Origin: an uncultured Clostridia bacterium
GTDB taxonomy: Bacteria; Bacillota; Clostridia; Christensenellales; CAG-138
NCBI GenBank assembly: GCA_905235205.1
Contig: CAJOKM010000004.1
Location: 1,879-65,878 of the forward strand
Direction of reading: 5' to 3'
DNA: 64,000 nt
Positions within the stretch are counted from its first letter, which is position 1, and every line of letters begins with the position of its first letter. A program made the translations under genes and the position numbers. Positions 7,329 to 56,651 of the stretch are shown here, piece after piece. The notes beneath the pieces were generated by a model. It worked only from the letters and a program-made list of their open reading frames with translations. It was not told the origin of the DNA and ran no database searches.

Positions 7329-8249
7329 ATGGAACCGTGGAAAGCACAGTGGACGGCATTGCTGCCCAAACCCATATCGGAGGTGCTGCATCGCATTGAC
7401 GAAACAGAACCGCTTTTAGAGATCCGTCTGCGGCGCGACGCGCCGATGGAGCTTGTGTTCGAGGACGCGGATCGGATCGTATACGGCAACAACGGCGCGC
7501 CGATGACGACGGCGGAGGATCTTCGGCAGATCTGCGCGCGCCTGACGGAGTTTTCGGCGTTTGCCTGGGAGAATGAGAAGCGGAGCGGATTTGTCACGGT
7601 CGGCGGATGCCGTGTCGGACTGTCCGGACGCATGATCCGCTCGGAAAAGGGTGTTTTAGGGTTTTCATCGGTCTCGGGACTGTGCATTCGTATCGTGCGG
7701 GAGAAAATCGACTGCGCAAAGGATTTGTCGAGCGCGCTGATGCGCGACGGGCGGCTGCTTTCCTCGATCCTGGTCTCACCGCCGGGATGCGGCAAAACGA
7801 CGCTTTTGCGCGATCTGATCCGGATTGCGTCCGACGGATTGTACGGGGTACGCGCAAGCCGCGTCGGCGTCGCGGATGAACGGTTCGAGCTCTCGGGCGG
7901 GTCCGACGGTTCCGTGCCGTTCGATCTGGGCGTACGGACCGACGTCGTTTCGGGGATTGCAAAGGCGGACGCGATGGTGCGGATTCTGTCCACGCTCTCG
8001 CCCGAGATCCTTGCGATGGACGAATTGAACGACCGGCGCGACTGCGACGCGCTGCTGGACGCGCACGGCAGAGGCGTGACGGTGCTTGCGACCGCGCACG
8101 GCAGCGACAGAGAAGACCTCATACGCCGACCGATGCTCCGGATGCTGTTCCGCGAACGCGTGTTCGAGCGGATCGCGGTTTTGCACGGCATCGGAAAACT
8201 GAAAGCCGTGTATGACGAAACCGCCGCGCGAACGGAAGTGCGCAGGTGA
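7329..8249 (+). CDS. spoIIIAA: stage III sporulation protein AA (ATPase)
   Basis: Start MEPWKAQW with AGGAGG upstream. Walker A SPPGCGKTTLLRDL and Walker B ILAMDEL; first gene of the 8-gene spoIIIA order. Confidence 0.9.
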   Translation: MEPWKAQWTALLPKPISEVLHRIDETEPLLEIRLRRDAPMELVFEDADRIVYGNNGAPMTTAEDLRQICARLTEFSAFAWENEKRSGFVTVGGCRVGLSGRMIRSEKGVLGFSSVSGLCIRIVREKIDCAKDLSSALMRDGRLLSSILVSPPGCGKTTLLRDLIRIASDGLYGVRASRVGVADERFELSGGSDGSVPFDLGVRTDVVSGIAKADAMVRILSTLSPEILAMDELNDRRDCDALLDAHGRGVTVLATAHGSDREDLIRRPMLRMLFRERVFERIAVLHGIGKLKAVYDETAARTEVRR

Positions 8250-26150: not shown

Positions 26151-26975
26151 ATGGAAGATTTGATGAAGATCATCAACAGCGCTGCGGCGCTTCTAAAGGA
26201 ACAGGGCGCGGACAAGGCAACGATCGGACTGATCCTGGGCAGCGGACTCGGCGATTATGCGGAAACGCTCGAAAACAAGCGGTTTGTGAATTATTCGGAT
26301 ATCGAAGGCTACCCGGTCTCGGCGGTCGTCGGGCACAAGAATCGGTTCGTCATCGGCGAAAAAAACGGCAAGACGGTCATCGCCATGCAGGGGCGGTTCC
26401 ATTATTACGAGGGGTATCCGCAGTCGCTTCTGACGCTCGGCGTGCGCACCATGCGAAAGCTCGGCGTAAAGAAGCTTCTGATCACCAACGCGGCGGGCGG
26501 CGTGAATATGAACTACCACGCGGGCGATCTGATGCTGATCTCGGATCACATCAACCTGTCCGGCAGCAATCCGCTGATCGGCAAGAACCTGGACGAGTTC
26601 GGTCCGCGCTTCCCGGATCAGAGCAACGTGTACGATAAGGATCTCCGCGCAAGGATGATCGAACTGTCCATACGCGAAGGGATCCCGATGCAGGAGGGCG
26701 TATACATCATGATGTCCGGTCCGTGCTACGAAACGCCGGCGGAGATCCGCATGGCGCGCGCGCTCGGCGCGGACGCGGTCGGTATGTCCACGGTGCCCGA
26801 AGCGATGTGCGCGGCACACTGCGGCATGAAGGTGCTGGGCATCTCGCTGATCACCAACATGGCGGCGGGCGTACTCGATCAGCCGCTTTCCCACGCGGAG
26901 GTCACCGAAACCGCAGCAAAGGCGACCAAACAATTCACCGCGCTTGTCGATCTGATTTTAAAAGAGATCTTCTGA
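26151..26975 (+). CDS. punA: purine nucleoside phosphorylase (PNP family I, trimeric type)
   Basis: GLILGSGLG, GRFHYYEGY, TNAAGG and AVGMSTVPE. Confidence 0.92.
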   Translation: MEDLMKIINSAAALLKEQGADKATIGLILGSGLGDYAETLENKRFVNYSDIEGYPVSAVVGHKNRFVIGEKNGKTVIAMQGRFHYYEGYPQSLLTLGVRTMRKLGVKKLLITNAAGGVNMNYHAGDLMLISDHINLSGSNPLIGKNLDEFGPRFPDQSNVYDKDLRARMIELSIREGIPMQEGVYIMMSGPCYETPAEIRMARALGADAVGMSTVPEAMCAAHCGMKVLGISLITNMAAGVLDQPLSHAEVTETAAKATKQFTALVDLILKEIF

Positions 26976-26980
26976 TTTTT

Positions 26981-27110
26981 CGCGCCGAAGGCGCGCGCCG
27001 CAAAAGGTTGGTAGCGAGAGATTTTCGTTGTGAGGGCGTTTACAACCGAACAGAAAATCCGAGCGAGACCTTTTGCGGAAAGGAGCCGCGACGGAGCGTG
27101 CGAGCGGTGA
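26981..27110 (-). repeat. tRNA-linked structured repeat, copy A (81-nt hairpin core 26998..27078 plus small GC hairpin 26981..26995)
   Basis: Near-identical to 55437..55562 in the opposite orientation. Closing stem CCGCAAAAGGT/ACCTTTTGCGG. Lies 26 nt distal to the tRNA-Ser(GGA) terminator, in the same sense as the tRNA. Confidence 0.85.
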
Positions 27111-27136
27111 CGCTTCACGGACGTCGGCTGAACTTC

Positions 27137-27183
27137 CCCAAAACGAAAGCGTCGCCGCGAACTCAGCGGAGTCCGCGGCGACG
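27137..27183 (-). terminator. rho-independent terminator of tRNA-Ser(GGA)
   Basis: On the minus strand, CGTCGCCGCGGACTCCGCTGAGTTCGCGGCGACG followed by CTTTCGTTTTGGGG; it begins right after the CCA end. Confidence 0.7.
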
Positions 27184-27274
27184 TGGCGCAGAGAGAGGGA
27201 TTCGAACCCTCGATACGGTTCCCCGTATACACGATTTCCAGTCGTGCGCCTTAGACCAGCTCAGCCATCTCTGC
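27184..27274 (-). tRNA. tRNA-Ser (anticodon GGA)
   Basis: Manual fold: acceptor GCAGAGA/TCTCTGC, anticodon stem CACGA/TCGTG, loop CTGGAAA, long variable arm, T-arm GAGGG-TTCGAAT-CCCTC, encoded CCA. Confidence 0.9.
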
Positions 27275-27300
27275 ACGGTGGTTTTTGCTGCACCTTTGCT

Positions 27301-27329
27301 ATCTTACAACAATCGTTCCCAAAAAGCAA
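27301..27329 (-). promoter_or_regulatory. sigma-A type promoter for tRNA-Ser(GGA)
   Basis: Minus-strand TTGCTT (27329-27324), 17-nt spacer, TAAGAT (27306-27301). Confidence 0.4.
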
Positions 27330-27389
27330 GTGATTTTTTCGACTTGCCGAGGCATCAGCACAGAAAAAACAAAAATGTTGAAAAAAGTG

Positions 27390-27417
27390 CTTGCTTTTTT
27401 TCTGAAACCGTGTATAA
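27390..27417 (+). promoter_or_regulatory. sigma-A type promoter for tRNA-Ala
   Basis: TTGCTT (27390-27395), 16-nt spacer, TATAAT (27412-27417), 14 nt before the tRNA 5' end. Confidence 0.5.
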
Positions 27418-27431
27418 TGATTTCTGTTCGC

Positions 27432-27506
27432 GGGGCATTAGCACAGTTGGTAGCGCGCAACGTTCGCAATGTTGAGGTCAGGAGTTCGAATCTCCTATGC
27501 TCCACC
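27432..27506 (+). tRNA. tRNA-Ala (anticodon CGC)
   Basis: Acceptor GGGGCAT/ATGCTCC with the G3:U70 alanine identity pair, anticodon loop TTCGCAA, T-loop GGTTCGAATCC-like AGGAGTTCGAATCTCCT, encoded CCA. Confidence 0.9.
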
Positions 27507-27546
27507 ACGTCGTCGTAAGTCTCACTTGACTTGCGACGATTTTTTT
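27507..27546 (+). terminator. rho-independent terminator after tRNA-Ala
   Basis: CGTCGTCGTAAGTC-TCACTT-GACTTGCGACGA followed by a T7 run; starts immediately after CCA. Confidence 0.75.
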
Positions 27547-48533: not shown

Positions 48534-49925
48534 TCATGCTATTTCAAAGCCGTGGATCCAGTCGGACTTTTTATAGTAGATGAAATAGATCACCGAGCTG
48601 ATAAACCAGGTCAGCGGATAGGCGGCAAAGAGCAGGATGATCTCATGACGGATCGACATGGCGACCGTGATATAAATGATGCGGAACACGCACCACACCG
48701 CAAGCATGATGACCATCGGTACGATCGCCTTGCCTGCGCCGCGGCAGATGCCCGCGATGGAGTGCGAAAACGCCAAGAGGAAGAAAAACAGCGATTCCAC
48801 ACGGCACTGCCGTGCGCCGATTGCGATAATCTCCTGCACCGCCTGCGGGTCCTGGTCGGTGATAAAGGTCGAGATGAAGAATCCGCCGAAAAAGAACAGC
48901 ACGATCCCGACGATCTCCGCCATGGTGATCGACGTGAGGATGCCGAACCGCGCGCCTTCTCTTGCGCGGTCGTACTGTCTCGCGCCGAGGTTCTGACCGA
49001 TGTAGCTTGTCAAAGCCATCGAGAAGCTCATGATCGGCAGGAACACGAAGCCTTCGATGCGCGAATACGCGCCGCACGCCGCCATGGCGAGCGCGCCGAA
49101 GCTGTTGATGTTGGTCTGCACGAGCACGTTCGCCAATCCGATGACGGAGTTCTGCACGCCGGTCGGAAGCCCGTAGCGGACGATCTCCTTGAGGCTCAGC
49201 CGGTCCATGCGCAGTTTCTTCCATTCAAGGCGGTAGACGGTTCCTTTGCGGGTGAGTTGAATGAGGCAGAGAATTGCGCTGACGGTCTGAGATAGGACCG
49301 TCGCGATCGCCGCCCACTCGACGCCGAGCCCAAGCGCCCCGACAAAGAACAGGTCGAGCAGGACGTTCAAAACGGAGGACACGATGAGGTAGTACAGCGG
49401 ACGGCGGCTGTCGCCGACCGCGTTCATGACGCCCTTCATCGAGTTGTACATGACCACGGGAACGGAGCCCAGGAAATAGTAGCGCAGGTACGCGACCGAG
49501 TTCGGCATGACGTTTTCGGGCACGCCCATCCATTTGAGAATCTGCGGCGTCATGACCACGCCGAACACCGAAAGCACGATCCCGCAGATCAGAGAGAACA
49601 CGGTGTTGGTATGGACCGCCTTTGAAACGCGGTCGAGATCGCCCGCGCCGAAATAGCGTGAGATCACCACGCCCGCGCCCATCGACGCGCCGACAAAAAA
49701 GCTGATCAGAAGGTAAATGAGACTCCCCGAGGAATTGACCGCCGCGAGCGCTTCCTTGCCGAGGAAGTTTCCGACGATCCACGAGTCCGCCGTGTTGTAG
49801 AGCTGCTGAAAGAGCTGGCTTAAGAAGATCGGCGTCGCAAAGGAGACGAGCACCTTCCACGGCTTGCCTTCGGTCAGCAGCCGTGCGGATTGCGGATGAT
49901 GGTGGAAGATGGAAGAGAGTTTCAT
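48534..49925 (-). CDS. MATE family efflux transporter
   Basis: 463 aa, 12 TM helices, N-terminal PIFLSQLFQQLYNTADSWIVGNFLG. Confidence 0.9.
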   Translation of the reverse strand: MKLSSIFHHHPQSARLLTEGKPWKVLVSFATPIFLSQLFQQLYNTADSWIVGNFLGKEALAAVNSSGSLIYLLISFFVGASMGAGVVISRYFGAGDLDRVSKAVHTNTVFSLICGIVLSVFGVVMTPQILKWMGVPENVMPNSVAYLRYYFLGSVPVVMYNSMKGVMNAVGDSRRPLYYLIVSSVLNVLLDLFFVGALGLGVEWAAIATVLSQTVSAILCLIQLTRKGTVYRLEWKKLRMDRLSLKEIVRYGLPTGVQNSVIGLANVLVQTNINSFGALAMAACGAYSRIEGFVFLPIMSFSMALTSYIGQNLGARQYDRAREGARFGILTSITMAEIVGIVLFFFGGFFISTFITDQDPQAVQEIIAIGARQCRVESLFFFLLAFSHSIAGICRGAGKAIVPMVIMLAVWCVFRIIYITVAMSIRHEIILLFAAYPLTWFISSVIYFIYYKKSDWIHGFEIA

Positions 49926-50005
49926 ATTTTTGGATTCAAATCATGGATCGGTGAAATCTGCTTACGCAGATGAAATTCGCCCTGCGGACGGAGGAAATCC
50001 GCCAG

Positions 50006-50139
50006 CCGCGCCGCAGGCGCGCAACCGCAAGCGATTGGTAGCGCAGCGGAGGCGTTGAGAGGGCGCTTGCAACCGAGCAGCCGTAGCAAGCGTGATCGCT
50101 TGCGGAAAGGAGGAGCGGCGGAGCAAGGCGCAGCGGCGG
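50006..50139 (-). repeat. tRNA-linked structured repeat, diverged copy C (81-nt hairpin core 50024..50104; small GC hairpin 50006..50020)
   Basis: Same architecture and length as copies A and B, but the closing stem is CCGCAAGCGAT/ATCGCTTGCGG (three compensatory pair changes). Lies 12 nt distal to the tRNA-Ser(GCT) terminator. Confidence 0.8.
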
Positions 50140-50151
50140 ATTGTTTCTGCA

Positions 50152-50192
50152 AGAAAAAAGCCGCCGCGAGCTCAGCGGAGCCCGCGACGACG
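50152..50192 (-). terminator. rho-independent terminator of the tRNA-Ser pair
   Basis: Minus-strand CGTCGTCGCGGGCTCCGCTGAGCTCGCGGCGGC followed by a T6 run. Confidence 0.75.
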
Positions 50193-50285
50193 TGGCGCGG
50201 AAAGTGGGATTTGAACCCACGCACCGGTCATCCCAGTCTACTCCCTTAGCAGGGGAGCCCCTTATAGCCACTTGGGTATTTCCGC
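50193..50285 (-). tRNA. tRNA-Ser (anticodon GCT)
   Basis: Acceptor GCGGAAA/TTTCCGC, anticodon stem CTCCC/GGGAG, loop CTGCTAA, long variable arm, T-arm GTGGG-TTCAAAT-CCCAC, encoded CCA. Confidence 0.9.
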
Positions 50286-50302
50286 GTGCTTTTCGAGAAA
50301 AT

Positions 50303-50389
50303 GGCGGAGATGGTAGGATTTGAACCCACGGATGCTCTCACATCAACGGTTTTCAAGACCGCCTCCTTAAGCCACTCGGACACATCTCC
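50303..50389 (-). tRNA. tRNA-Ser (anticodon TGA)
   Basis: Acceptor GGAGATG/CATCTCC, anticodon loop CTTGAAA, long variable arm, T-loop TTCAAAT, encoded CCA. Confidence 0.9.
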
Positions 50390-50402: not shown

Positions 50403-50431
50403 ATTATAACAAATCGGCGTGCGAATGTCAA
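50403..50431 (-). promoter_or_regulatory. consensus sigma-A promoter for the tRNA-Ser pair
   Basis: Minus-strand TTGACA (50431-50426), 17-nt spacer, TATAAT (50408-50403). Confidence 0.7.
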
Positions 50432-55300: not shown

Positions 55301-55374
55301 GCAGGTATAGTGTAGCGGTAACACATTAGCCTTCCAAGCTGAGATCACGGGTTCGAGTCCCGTTACCTGCTCCA
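55301..55374 (+). tRNA. tRNA-Gly (anticodon TCC)
   Basis: Acceptor GCAGGTA/TACCTGC, anticodon loop CTTCCAA, T-loop GGTTCGAGTCC, encoded CCA. Confidence 0.9.
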
Positions 55375-55413
55375 CGTCGCCGCAAGCTTCACTGAGCTTG
55401 CGGCGACTTTTTT
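55375..55413 (+). terminator. rho-independent terminator of the tRNA operon
   Basis: CGTCGCCGCAAGCT-TCACTG-AGCTTGCGGCGAC followed by a T6 run; begins right after CCA. Confidence 0.8.
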
Positions 55414-55436: not shown

Positions 55437-55562
55437 CGCCTTGTTCCGCTGCGGCTCCTCTCCGCAAAAGGTCACGCTCGGATTTTCTGTTCGGTTGTAA
55501 ACGCCCTCACAACGAAAATCTCTCGCTACCAACCTTTTGCGGGTTTCCGCGCCTGCGGCGCG
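55437..55562 (+). repeat. tRNA-linked structured repeat, copy B (81-nt hairpin core 55462..55542; small GC hairpin 55548..55562)
   Basis: Reverse complement of copy A with only a few mismatches. Closing stem CCGCAAAAGGT/ACCTTTTGCGG. Lies 23 nt after the tRNA operon terminator. Confidence 0.85.
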
Positions 55563-55611
55563 TCTGTATGAGGCTTCCCCTTGAGGGGAAGCTCCGCGAA
55601 GCGGTGATGAG

Positions 55612-55682
55612 GTGTTGCAAACGCGCTCACAACGGCTCGCTCTCGCTACCAACCTTTTGCGGGTTTCCGCGTCTAATGCGCG
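55612..55682 (+). repeat. partial (3' half) copy of the tRNA-linked repeat
   Basis: GGTGTTGCAAACGCGCTCACAACGGCTCGCTCTCGCTACCAACCTTTTGCGGGTTTCCGCG matches the distal half of copy B. It is preceded by the perfect hairpin GCTTCCCC-TTGA-GGGGAAGC (55573-55592). Confidence 0.75.
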
Positions 55683-55689
55683 TTCAATA

Positions 55690-55725
55690 AAAGAAAAGAT
55701 CCGGTTTCAAGCCGGATCCTGTGTT
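55690..55725 (-). terminator. terminator of the MBL-fold gene
   Basis: Minus-strand GGATCCGGCTTGAAACCGGATC followed by TTTTCTTTTATT. Confidence 0.65.
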
Positions 55726-56547
55726 TTATTCGTTCACGGTGATTGTGCCTTCGGCGACAGTCACATGTACGTCGCCGTTTTTCGTTTGCAGGATGACGGG
55801 CTCGAACAGATCGAGCGTTTGCATCGTCTTCTCCTCGGCGGGGTTCTTCGCGGAATCGCAGATCACGACGTATTGCGGCAGCGCAACGGCGAGCAGTTCA
55901 AACAGATTCGCGTCGTACACGCCGTGGTGCGGCAGCTTCAGAATATCGCAGGTCAGGTTTTTTCCGGAAAAGACCAGCGCCTTCAATTCATCTTTTTCGG
56001 CGTCGCCCATGAAAAGCAGCGTTTTTCCGCCGTACAGGATCTTTGTGATCAGCGACTGCTCGTTGTCGCTCTTGCCGTCGAACGCGACGGGAGAGACCCA
56101 CACGGACAGATCCATCGCGCCGAACGACATCGTTTCGTCCTCGGTCTGCCTTGTGACCGGGACGTTCGCAGCGTCGATCTCTTCCAGAAGCTCGGTGCGC
56201 TGCTTGGATTCCTTTTCATAGGCCGGCATGATGATGCGCGCGATCGGAAGCGAGCGGATCAGCGCGTCCGCGCCGCCGATGTGATCCTTGTCAAAATGCG
56301 TGAGAATCAGAAGGTCCAGCTTTTCGACGCCGAGCGCGCGAAGGGCTTCGACCAGCTCGTCGCCGTCGCCGTTTTCTCCGGTGTCGATCATAACGGCAGC
56401 GTCGCTCGTGCGGATCAGAAGCGCGTCCGCCTTGCCGACCGAAAAGGCGTACAGTTCCAGTTTATCCGCCGTATCCGAATCCGCCGGATGGCATGCGCAG
56501 CCCGCAAGCAGAAGCAGGGCAATCAGGATGAGAATCAATCGTTTCAT
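55726..56547 (-). CDS. MBL-fold metallo-hydrolase lipoprotein (ComEC C-terminal domain-like)
   Basis: Start MKRLILILIALLLLAGC (lipobox) inside ORF 55726..56679. LILTHFDKDHIGG and LKLPHHG metal motifs. Confidence 0.8.
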   Translation of the reverse strand: MKRLILILIALLLLAGCACHPADSDTADKLELYAFSVGKADALLIRTSDAAVMIDTGENGDGDELVEALRALGVEKLDLLILTHFDKDHIGGADALIRSLPIARIIMPAYEKESKQRTELLEEIDAANVPVTRQTEDETMSFGAMDLSVWVSPVAFDGKSDNEQSLITKILYGGKTLLFMGDAEKDELKALVFSGKNLTCDILKLPHHGVYDANLFELLAVALPQYVVICDSAKNPAEEKTMQTLDLFEPVILQTKNGDVHVTVAEGTITVNE

Positions 56548-56651
56548 AGGATCAGTATACCCGAACCGCGCCCTCTTGACAAGTCCCGAATCTGTGGTAT
56601 ACTGTAGATACGAACAAATGTTCGAATATCGTCGAAAGCGGATGAAAGAGC

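Follow-up and report, generated by a model that had tools for sequence, protein, structure and literature searches.

The element studied here occupies positions 50,006 to 50,139 of a 64-kb stretch of DNA from an uncultured Clostridia bacterium, to which we refer as the window. On the reverse strand it follows a two-gene operon, tRNA-Ser(tga)-tRNA-Ser(gct), which is preceded by a perfect TTGACA-17-TATAAT promoter (50431-50403) and closed by an intrinsic terminator, T1. Beyond T1 lie a short C/U-rich tract and an 81-nt hairpin (copy C), and further downstream on the same strand is a MATE efflux gene (48534-49925), an assignment of the earlier note that is borne out by a match to MatE (E 1e-57); an exact look-up of the MATE protein returned the same strain only. 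The 3' side of copy C carries a small G+C hairpin, whose flanks can pair with 50124-50139 to give an outer stem in the predicted fold, and a run of short Gut-1-like hairpins. Two more full copies of the 81-nt hairpin (A and B) and a truncated one (D) lie elsewhere in the window, and the coordinates of all features are collected in Table 1. Contigs of the same strain end in or beside copy C, as expected for a repeat.

Table 1. Hairpin copies, their parts and neighbouring features in the window.
Feature	Position	Strand	Remarks
Copy C, 81-nt three-helix hairpin	50025..50105	-	Covariance model R1, 103.3 bits; strand taken from G.U counts and tRNA orientation
Copy C, P1 5' arm CCGCAAGCGAU	50095..50105	-	All 11 P1 pairs covary family-wide
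Copy C, P1 3' arm AUCGCUUGCGG	50025..50035	-	All 11 P1 pairs covary family-wide
Copy C, P3 stem GUUG/CAAC with conserved apical loop AAGCGCCCUC	50053..50073	-	Core used for the genome scan
Copy C, C/U tract GCUCCUCCUUU	50106..50116	-	Single-stranded; contains CCUCCUUUC; directly 5' of P1
Intrinsic terminator T1 of tRNA-Ser operon	50154..50191	-	14-bp stem and U6; begins 1 nt after CCA with CGUCG
tRNA-Ser(gct)	50193..50285	-	Last gene of the operon before copy C
tRNA-Ser(tga)	50302..50389	-	First gene of the operon before copy C
Small G+C hairpin CGCGCC-UGC-GGCGCG	50007..50021	-	Often 3' of the 81-nt hairpin; predicted fold
Gut-1-like run of short hairpins separated by GAAAU	49933..50003	+	20.7 bits, below the gathering score of 50
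Copy A, hairpin	26998..27078	-	R1, 107 bits; C/U tract 27079-27087
Terminator hairpin with U-rich tail, upstream of copy A	27139..27182	-	Directly after tRNA-Ser(gga)
tRNA-Ser(gga)	27184-27274	-	Upstream of copy A
Copy B, hairpin	55462..55542	+	R1, 111.1 bits; C/U tract 55453-55461
Terminator T1, upstream of copy B	55376..55413	+	14-bp stem and U6; directly after tRNA-Gly(tcc)
tRNA-Gly(tcc)	55301-55374	+	End of the six-tRNA cluster before copies B and D
Copy D, 5'-truncated	~55611..55662	+	R1, 29.9 bits; P3, loop and 3' strands kept, 5' strands replaced
tRNA-Ala(cgc)	27432-27507	+	Lacks the hairpin module
Terminator of tRNA-Ala(cgc), comparison site	27508..27546	+	CCA, then CGUCG hairpin and U7; lacks C/U tract and 81-nt hairpin

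The earlier note had described copy C as a diverged copy in which base pairing survives substitution, and each of its readings was recovered base for base. The core is 81 nt long in copy C, as in copies A and B. In the closing stem the 5' arm, as read, has A>G at position 7, A>C at 8 and G>A at 10, and the 3' arm has T>C at 5, T>G at 4 and C>T at 2; the latter three are exactly the bases that pair with the former, and all pairs are preserved. The arms of copy C read CCGCAAGCGAT (50025-50035) and its complement ATCGCTTGCGG (50095-50105), and those of copies A and B read CCGCAAAAGGT and its complement ACCTTTTGCGG (at 26998/27068 in A and 55462/55532 in B). Chance is excluded as the source of the repeat in the window, because the A/B 11-mer CCGCAAAAGGT has five matches there against 0.03 expected and the full copies score 103-111 bits with the covariance model; exactly four model matches (A to D) occur in the window, at three loci. 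Copies A and B belong to one subfamily and copy C to another. Since both subfamilies recur in other genomes, the three compensated differences separate two old lineages and did not arise within this genome.

A scan of one genome per species, with the apical core GTTGYAARCGCNCTCNCAACG as the query, returned at least 116 loci. More than 100 of the matches are true relatives, from about 60 Clostridia assemblies (a lower bound, counted among the 80 loci with titles listed). Nearly all of the hosts are gut or rumen Clostridia, including Oscillospiraceae, Christensenellales, Acutalibacter, Candidatus Fimenecus and Anaerovoracaceae, and among the matches listed there is one cultured carrier, Youxingia wuxianensis NSJ-64 (locus L005), in which the copy occupies 7435-7539 and comes after tRNA-Leu(tag). 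We built the covariance model, R1, from 103 copies; it has 129 matches in 0.71 Mb of fetched loci, many of them outside the search pattern. Many matches lie at contig ends, and two loci (L122 and L123) end in or beside the element. The element is also surrounded by a mosaic of other small features, including G+C hairpins, Gut-1-like hairpins, a 53-nt nested insertion and, in L089, a swapped apical domain.

The element has no family in the collections that we searched. No Rfam 15 family matches at its gathering score over 50006-50139 or over copy A or B, and the tRNAs alone pass in the window; the sub-threshold overlaps are with mir-75, OxyS and ncS037 (E 0.67-9.6). Across the window and 18 loci, Rfam 15 yielded tRNAs, 5S rRNA, a cobalamin riboswitch and one Gut-1, none of them on the 81-nt hairpin. 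Neither the PLSDB plasmids nor the INPHARED phages gave a blastn match to the whole module. A scan of IMG/VR returned four matches, of which two are genuine, and these loci had no called tRNA. By sequence, motif or context we found no published description of the 81-nt element, and the first 200 of the 408 supplementary files of Fremin & Bhatt 2021 contain no match to it.

The consensus fold computed with RNAalifold from the 103 copies has four helices: P1 (11 bp), P2a (3 bp), P2b (3 bp) and P3 (5 bp), the last capped by a 10-nt apical loop, AARCGCNCUC / AARCGCCCUC. The internal loops are also conserved, reading CAC..GCUC on the 5' strand and UCGCUACCA on the opposite one. The stems are maintained by compensatory change and the apical and internal loops are maintained in sequence, the apical loop also in those copies that were found by the model only. 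A possible extra 2-bp helix (GC/GC) in the large internal loop is weakly supported.

Several counts bear on this fold. In the 103-copy alignment (A2), where P3 and its loop are fixed by the search pattern, 93.3% of stem cells are paired against 77.6% in column shuffles (0 of 500 shuffles as high), and pairing falls to 38-53% when the partners are slid by 1-3 columns. Cells changed on both sides number 342 against 102 expected, although the copies are phylogenetically related and cell counts overstate the number of independent events. A second, less ascertained set of 47 copies (A4), half of them outside the pattern, gave 90.4% against 75.1%; this set was aligned by the covariance model, and a model-fitted alignment leans towards the structure of the model. 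At the level of single loci, a pair with compensated change (GC/GC to AC/GU) is seen among the orthologous L017, L098 and L102.

The covariation also has a direction. Over the 103 copies, G.U cells on the forward (tRNA-sense) strand outnumber A.C cells by 135 to 44, a bias that comes from P2 and P3, P1 alone being without it (16 vs 27). In the 47-copy set P3 varies almost only to tRNA-sense G.U, with 16 wobble cells and a further 18 U.G at the closing pair. Because the wobble counts favour the tRNA-sense strand, we take it to be the strand that folds.

The earlier note had argued from the copies in the window that selection acts on nucleic-acid secondary structure and not on a peptide. The whole family agrees with this: with 103 copies aligned and folded by RNAalifold, the stem substitutions are correlated and all 11 P1 pairs show compensatory change, while several reading frames are open at once, no ORF is conserved and 1-nt indels occur. 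The frame to which that note had drawn attention, encoding LVARDFRCEGVYNRTENPS at 27008-27064 (+) and 55476-55532 (-), is indeed open in copies A and B, and in copy C it stops at a TGA (...LVAQRRR*EG...). The substitutions are likewise not codon-patterned, in that they follow the logic of base pairs and change residues radically.

The copies stand in a fixed relation to tRNA genes. A co-oriented tRNA lies within 420 nt upstream of 51 of the 103 copies, and a tRNA on the opposite strand within 420 nt of none (0/103). Of the 103 copies, 11 are at contig edges, and about 40 have no intact tRNA in the fetched DNA, some of these following protein genes (L075, L026). Many copies without an adjacent tRNA are the second or third member of a tandem array (three copies each in L110, L012 and L014; also L076, L077 and L106), and others without an intact tRNA are preceded by a fragment resembling a tRNA 3' end just 5' of the CGUCG hairpin. 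A wide range of tRNAs is represented upstream (Leu, Pro, Gly, Ser, Trp, Arg, Thr, Lys, Tyr, Val, Cys and Met), and the distance from CCA to core clusters at 105-123 nt.

Together these parts form a module with the following order: tRNA CCA, intrinsic terminator T1, A-run, C/U tract (CCUCCUUUC-like) and 81-nt hairpin. In dozens of loci T1 starts 1 nt after the CCA with CGUCG and runs into a U-run; as a G+C-rich hairpin with a U-run, it meets the definition of an intrinsic terminator. In the window, copies A, B and C each come after the final tRNA of an operon and the terminator behind it, in the same sense. We found no sigma-70-like promoter for the module at the window copies.

The U-run of T1 can be re-paired by the A-run a few bases downstream (mean match 6.8 of 9 positions vs 4.7 in shuffles), and three flanking bases covary (GAC/GUC, GGC/GCC). 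The C/U tract, which is unpaired in the predicted folds, contains CTCCT in 88 and CCTCC in 58 of the 103 copies, and its consensus includes CCUCCUUUC, which we take to be the anti-Shine-Dalgarno tail of Bacillota 16S rRNA. The tract is more complementary to the arms of T1 than are shuffles, a comparison made with non-independent copies and mononucleotide shuffles. Taken together, tract and P1 5' strand look like a second copy of the T1 3' arm, U-run and A-run that has since diverged. The likeness of the tract to T1 may represent either a conformational switch or the fossil of a tandem duplication.

Duplicated tRNA ends accompany the module at some loci. Of about 100 tRNAs in the fetched loci, 16 have an exact copy of their last 14-30 nt downstream, 133-587 nt away. 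In 11 of these 16, the tRNA has its own, different terminator, followed by a structured insert that ends in the duplicate and at once by the CGUCG module. In L009 and L038 the 81-nt hairpin itself sits inside repeated units, and these units close with 18-21 nt of the 3' end of the upstream tRNA. The tRNAs of the window have no duplicate of 12 nt or more of their 3' end within 700 nt downstream.

We consider it probable that the element represents a structured repeat that is present in Clostridia in many copies and linked to tRNAs, and that it is part of the 3' flank of the tRNA-Ser(tga)-tRNA-Ser(gct) operon and not of the MATE gene. With at least as much confidence we would describe the family as a tRNA-sense structured RNA module of tRNA operon trailers. 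How such a module might work can be outlined from its anatomy. Polymerase that reads through T1 would transcribe the module in the tRNA sense, and the product would be a 3' external-spacer RNA whose amount follows the transcription of the tRNA operon, by analogy with RrA/B/F of E. coli. Because T1 looks strong (14-bp stem and U6), the downstream hairpin may be rarely transcribed. The long hairpin would lend stability to the RNA, and the invariant loop and the exposed C/U tract could serve as contact surfaces for a protein or for a purine-rich, Shine-Dalgarno-like RNA. Copies may spread and stay alike through tandem duplication and recombination between tRNA 3' flanks.

What the RNA would do is much less certain, and we regard any one molecular role, be it small RNA or decoy on the one hand or fail-safe insulator or processing element on the other, as doubtful. 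As a speculation to which we give little weight, the module could represent a new class of growth-rate-coupled small RNA: leaky tRNA operons would release a stable hairpin RNA displaying both the anti-Shine-Dalgarno copy CCUCCUUUC and the C-rich loop CGCCCUC. The partners of this RNA could be the Shine-Dalgarno regions in mRNAs or a protein specific for the 3' tail of 16S rRNA. If true, translation initiation would be tied to stable-RNA synthesis in gut Clostridia.

The strongest competitor of the tRNA-trailer module is a selfish or neutral repeat of the REP/BIME, ERIC/BOX or MITE kind, without any role in the cell. Its hairpin would serve its own spread, for example as single-stranded DNA for an HUH/RAYT-type enzyme, or would be carried along by unequal recombination at tRNA flanks. 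Much of the genomic behaviour described above suits such an origin, namely the many copies, the tandem arrays and the breaks in assemblies at L122, L123 and other contig ends, as do the subfamilies common to several genomes and the resemblance, noted above, of the C/U tract and P1 5' strand to the T1 3' arm with its U-run and A-run, as if duplicated and then diverged; the mosaic of small repeats in which the element lies is as compatible with selfish DNA as with a function. Yet, within 2.5 kb of about 100 copies, we saw no recurrent transposase, RAYT or integrase, no target-site duplication or flanking direct repeat was seen around the element, and the would-be terminal inverted repeats covary. 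A MITE with 11-bp inverted repeats was rejected on the same grounds: its arms covary and are not conserved in sequence, and no transposase is found among the neighbours. The strict orientation and position relative to tRNA genes (51 to 0) and the conservation of unpaired loop sequences across orders of Clostridia also speak against a purely selfish repeat, as does the preference of the wobble pairs for one strand, though single-stranded DNA could give the same bias. We judge a selfish or neutral origin to be unlikely.

Less probable again, in our view, is a purely local role at highly transcribed tRNA operons, where the element would be a fail-safe terminator, an insulator or a processing signal and its RNA would do nothing in trans. 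The C-rich, G-poor tract would then load Rho or a nuclease, and the long hairpin would be a pause site or a site of the RNase III type. The position behind the last tRNA of an operon and its T1 is what one would expect of such a device, the tract is C/U-rich and G-poor, a T-rich tail follows P1 in 28 of the 103 copies, and insulation would matter at the half of downstream genes that are convergent. Against this, the U-tail is absent from the other 75 of the 103, including every copy in the window, a generic pause hairpin needs no invariant apical and internal loops, and tRNA-Ala(cgc) in the same window does without the module. As an intrinsic terminator in its own right the 81-nt hairpin was rejected for most copies, on the distribution of the T-rich tail (28 of 103, none in the window).

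The earlier note had further proposed that copy C may be part of the 5' leader of the MATE gene, and a riboswitch-like cis-regulatory leader would be one reading of this locus. Copy C lies on the MATE strand, about 100 nt separate the end of its P1 from the ATG at 49925, we found no sigma-70-like promoter between T1 and that ATG, and the start codon is, as the note had observed, without a visible Shine-Dalgarno sequence, being preceded by gaatccaaaaat with no GGAGG-like motif. The proposal does not hold for the family. Over the family, 42 of the next genes downstream point the same way as the element and 40 are convergent, and their distances from it vary between -11 and 1424 nt. Copy C is the only copy in the window with a co-oriented downstream gene; copy A faces a convergent PNP_UDP_1 gene ending at 26975, and copies B and D face a convergent metallo-beta-lactamase-fold gene ending at 55726. 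No protein family, MATE or other, recurs within 2.5 kb of about 100 copies: the sole large cluster is an artefactual ORF running through the repeat itself, and the next largest neighbour family is present at 6 loci. Since the orientation of downstream genes is random and no neighbour recurs, the element is not the leader of any gene family, and together with the lack of an Rfam riboswitch match this makes a MATE leader very improbable. Read-through from the tRNA-Ser operon into MATE is possible at copy C, because the two are on the same strand with no promoter-like site between T1 and the ATG, but it would follow from the position of this copy and would not explain why the family exists.

Finally, we rejected the reading that the element encodes a conserved small protein, to which we attach next to no probability: several frames over the 87-nt core are stop-free in most copies and one forward frame is open in 101 of 103, but in this G+C-rich stretch three to four of them are open simultaneously, the forward strand has neither a start codon nor a Shine-Dalgarno sequence, on the reverse strand GGAGG is followed by unrelated ORFs of 4-23 codons, the copy C frame contains a stop, 1-nt indels occur, and the long ORFs that cross the repeats in the window (26723-27475, 55612-56607) have no Pfam hit.

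The tRNA-linked module is a new, widespread and well-supported structured repeat without a family in Rfam 15. Its nearest counterpart is a class of repeats long known from E. coli and still unsolved. It is abundant in dominant and poorly studied gut and rumen Clostridia, where it would constitute a new annotation family, and it breaks metagenome assemblies at tRNA loci. Experiments are feasible, since there is at least one cultured carrier, Youxingia wuxianensis NSJ-64.

Among known repeats, REP/BIME, ERIC, BOX and Correia elements are likewise short, structured, multi-copy intergenic mosaics, often at the 3' ends of transcription units. Unlike them, however, the element does not occur in both orientations beside many kinds of genes, being strictly oriented and linked to tRNAs. 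REPs conserve their sequence for RAYT enzymes, whereas the stems of the element covary and no RAYT or transposase gene was found beside it. Gut-1 (RF01706; Weinberg et al. 2010, PMC2864571) consists of three short hairpins separated by GUGAAAU. It inhabits the same intergenic spacers of gut Clostridia, and in L028 a true Gut-1 match lies 70 nt downstream of the element; the two are nevertheless separate, with no overlap between Gut-1 and the 81-nt hairpin and no Gut-1 match to the hairpin itself.

A function for the trailer of a tRNA operon has a precedent in 3'ETS-leuZ of E. coli, a 3' external transcribed spacer of a tRNA that sponges small RNAs by pairing with RyhB and RybB (as summarised in PMC8144298). 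The RNA role in a trailer and the coupling of expression to tRNA transcription would be shared with the module as we propose it, whereas 3'ETS-leuZ comes from one locus, ahead of the terminator, and has defined targets, and the element is multi-copy and lies behind the terminator.

The closest likeness is to the tRNA-linked repeats (TLRs) of E. coli (Egan & Landy 1978; Rudd 1999), of which there are 22 elements at ten loci (PMC8144298). In every one of them the final 18-19 bp match the 3' end of the preceding tRNA or rRNA exactly; the TLRs include RtT RNA (RF00391) and RrA/RrB/RrF, which lie between the dual terminators of rrnA/B/D and are made by read-through of T1 (PMC8144298). Although TLRs have been known since 1978, their function is largely unestablished beyond the binding of Hfq and CsrA by RrA/B/F in vitro (PMC8144298). 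Like TLRs, the element lies directly downstream of, and in the same orientation as, tRNA or rRNA genes, behind a first terminator, and it occupies several loci per genome, often in tandem (three loci and four copies in the window). The TLR-like end, in which the unit closes with a tRNA 3' end, is found in L009 and L038, whereas the window copies lack such a duplicate. Unlike TLRs, it belongs to Bacillota and not to Enterobacteria, the two share no similarity of sequence or structure, and its conserved part is the 81-nt covarying hairpin with the C/U tract, where TLRs of E. coli have GGA motifs. RtT RNA (gathering score 45 bits) has no match in the window, and its only match elsewhere in the fetched loci is to an insert in L028, off the hairpin, at 19 bits (E 0.59). 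Because the window has no tRNA-end duplicate and nothing resembling RtT, we regard the element as working like a TLR without being a member of the E. coli family. The same genomic logic thus appears in a distant phylum, here combined with a strongly covarying hairpin with invariant loops, and this hairpin offers a testable handle on the problem: a defined RNA with a defined candidate recognition surface.

All four tRNA transcription units of the window end in one type of terminator, whose stem begins with CGUCG, one base past the encoded CCA. Dozens of Clostridia loci outside the window show the same CCA-CGUCG junction, which lies behind many isoacceptors; this recurrence suggests a conserved 3'-processing or termination signal. 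At the other end of the tRNA-Ser(tga)-tRNA-Ser(gct) operon, a perfect TTGACA-17-TATAAT site with an extended -10 TG is the predicted promoter that drives it. No comparable site was found between the terminator of this operon and the start codon of the MATE gene.

The 81-nt hairpin of the CGUCG module is itself modular, as shown by two copies in locus L089 that keep P1 and the internal loops and have apical P3 and its loop swapped for an unrelated hairpin, TTCGGGCGG-TTAA-TCCGCCCGAA. Six further copies, from different assemblies, have the 5' strand of P1 interrupted by a nested insertion of ~53 nt (…CACTCCGCTCCGCTTYGTTACAG…GATCGCGCGCTTCCCGCG…TACCAYG), possibly a further short mobile or duplicated segment. 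A short G+C hairpin of the form CGCGCC-loop-GGCGCG, whose loop reads GAA, GCA, UGC or UCUAAUG, recurs immediately behind the 81-nt hairpin, both in the window and at many loci elsewhere. This hairpin resembles a distinct module of the REP type.

Positions of features in the window and in fetched loci (L numbers)
Feature	Locus	Coordinates (strand)
tRNA-Ser(gga) terminator	window	27139-27183
tRNA-Ala(cgc) terminator	window	27508-27546
tRNA-Ser(gct) terminator	window	50154-50192
tRNA-Gly(tcc) terminator	window	55375-55413
Predicted promoter	window	50403-50431 (-)
Small G+C hairpins	window	26981-26995, 50007-50021, 55548-55562, 55668-55682
Short-hairpin array	window	49933-50003 (+)
Short-hairpin arrays	L028	2588-2660 (-), 2484-2567 (+)
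Copies with apical replacement	L089	151-260, 389-498
Copy with nested insertion	L009	323-428
Copy with nested insertion	L035	6850-6953
Copies with nested insertion	L004, L045, L048, L084	
Element copy, IMG/VR contig	L119	1355-1460
Element copy, IMG/VR contig	L120	9279-9384
Structured inserts	L038	975-1338
Structured inserts	L001, L021, L027, L028, L033, L048, L061, L071, L081, L097, L116	

Arrays of short hairpins, with GUGAAAU or GAAAU spacers, also adjoin the 81-nt element. Against Gut-1 RNA, first reported from gut metagenomes with its host not known (Weinberg et al. 2010, PMC2864571), the L028 array, behind a tRNA locus in a Candidatus Fimenecus MAG, scores above the Rfam threshold (51.8 bits), and the window array only 20.7 bits.

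In practice, the 81-nt repeat is a cause of MAG fragmentation at tRNA loci. Contigs from independent assemblies of the window's strain end in or beside copy C, one (L122) 38 nt before the MATE ATG and another (L123) within the hairpin core, and many of the listed genome-scan matches are no more than 100 nt away from the end of a contig. Full-scoring copies (107-111 bits with covariance model R1, built from 103 copies) also occur on two IMG/VR contigs classed as viral, with no tRNA called near either; these contigs may represent either the edges of prophages at tRNA loci or host DNA that was misassigned.

Among the fetched loci, structured inserts of ~130-250 nt, two of them in tandem in L038, separate the tRNA from the CGUCG module, and the tRNA preceding each has its own A/T-flanked terminator. 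At the start of each insert stands the tRNA T-arm in reverse complement (e.g. GGGGAATCGAACC), and the last 14-30 nt of the insert duplicate the tRNA 3' end exactly, CCA included; GGACATAAAA(U/C)AGG is common to several. The structured inserts of these Clostridia loci bear the hallmark of the tRNA-linked repeats of E. coli.
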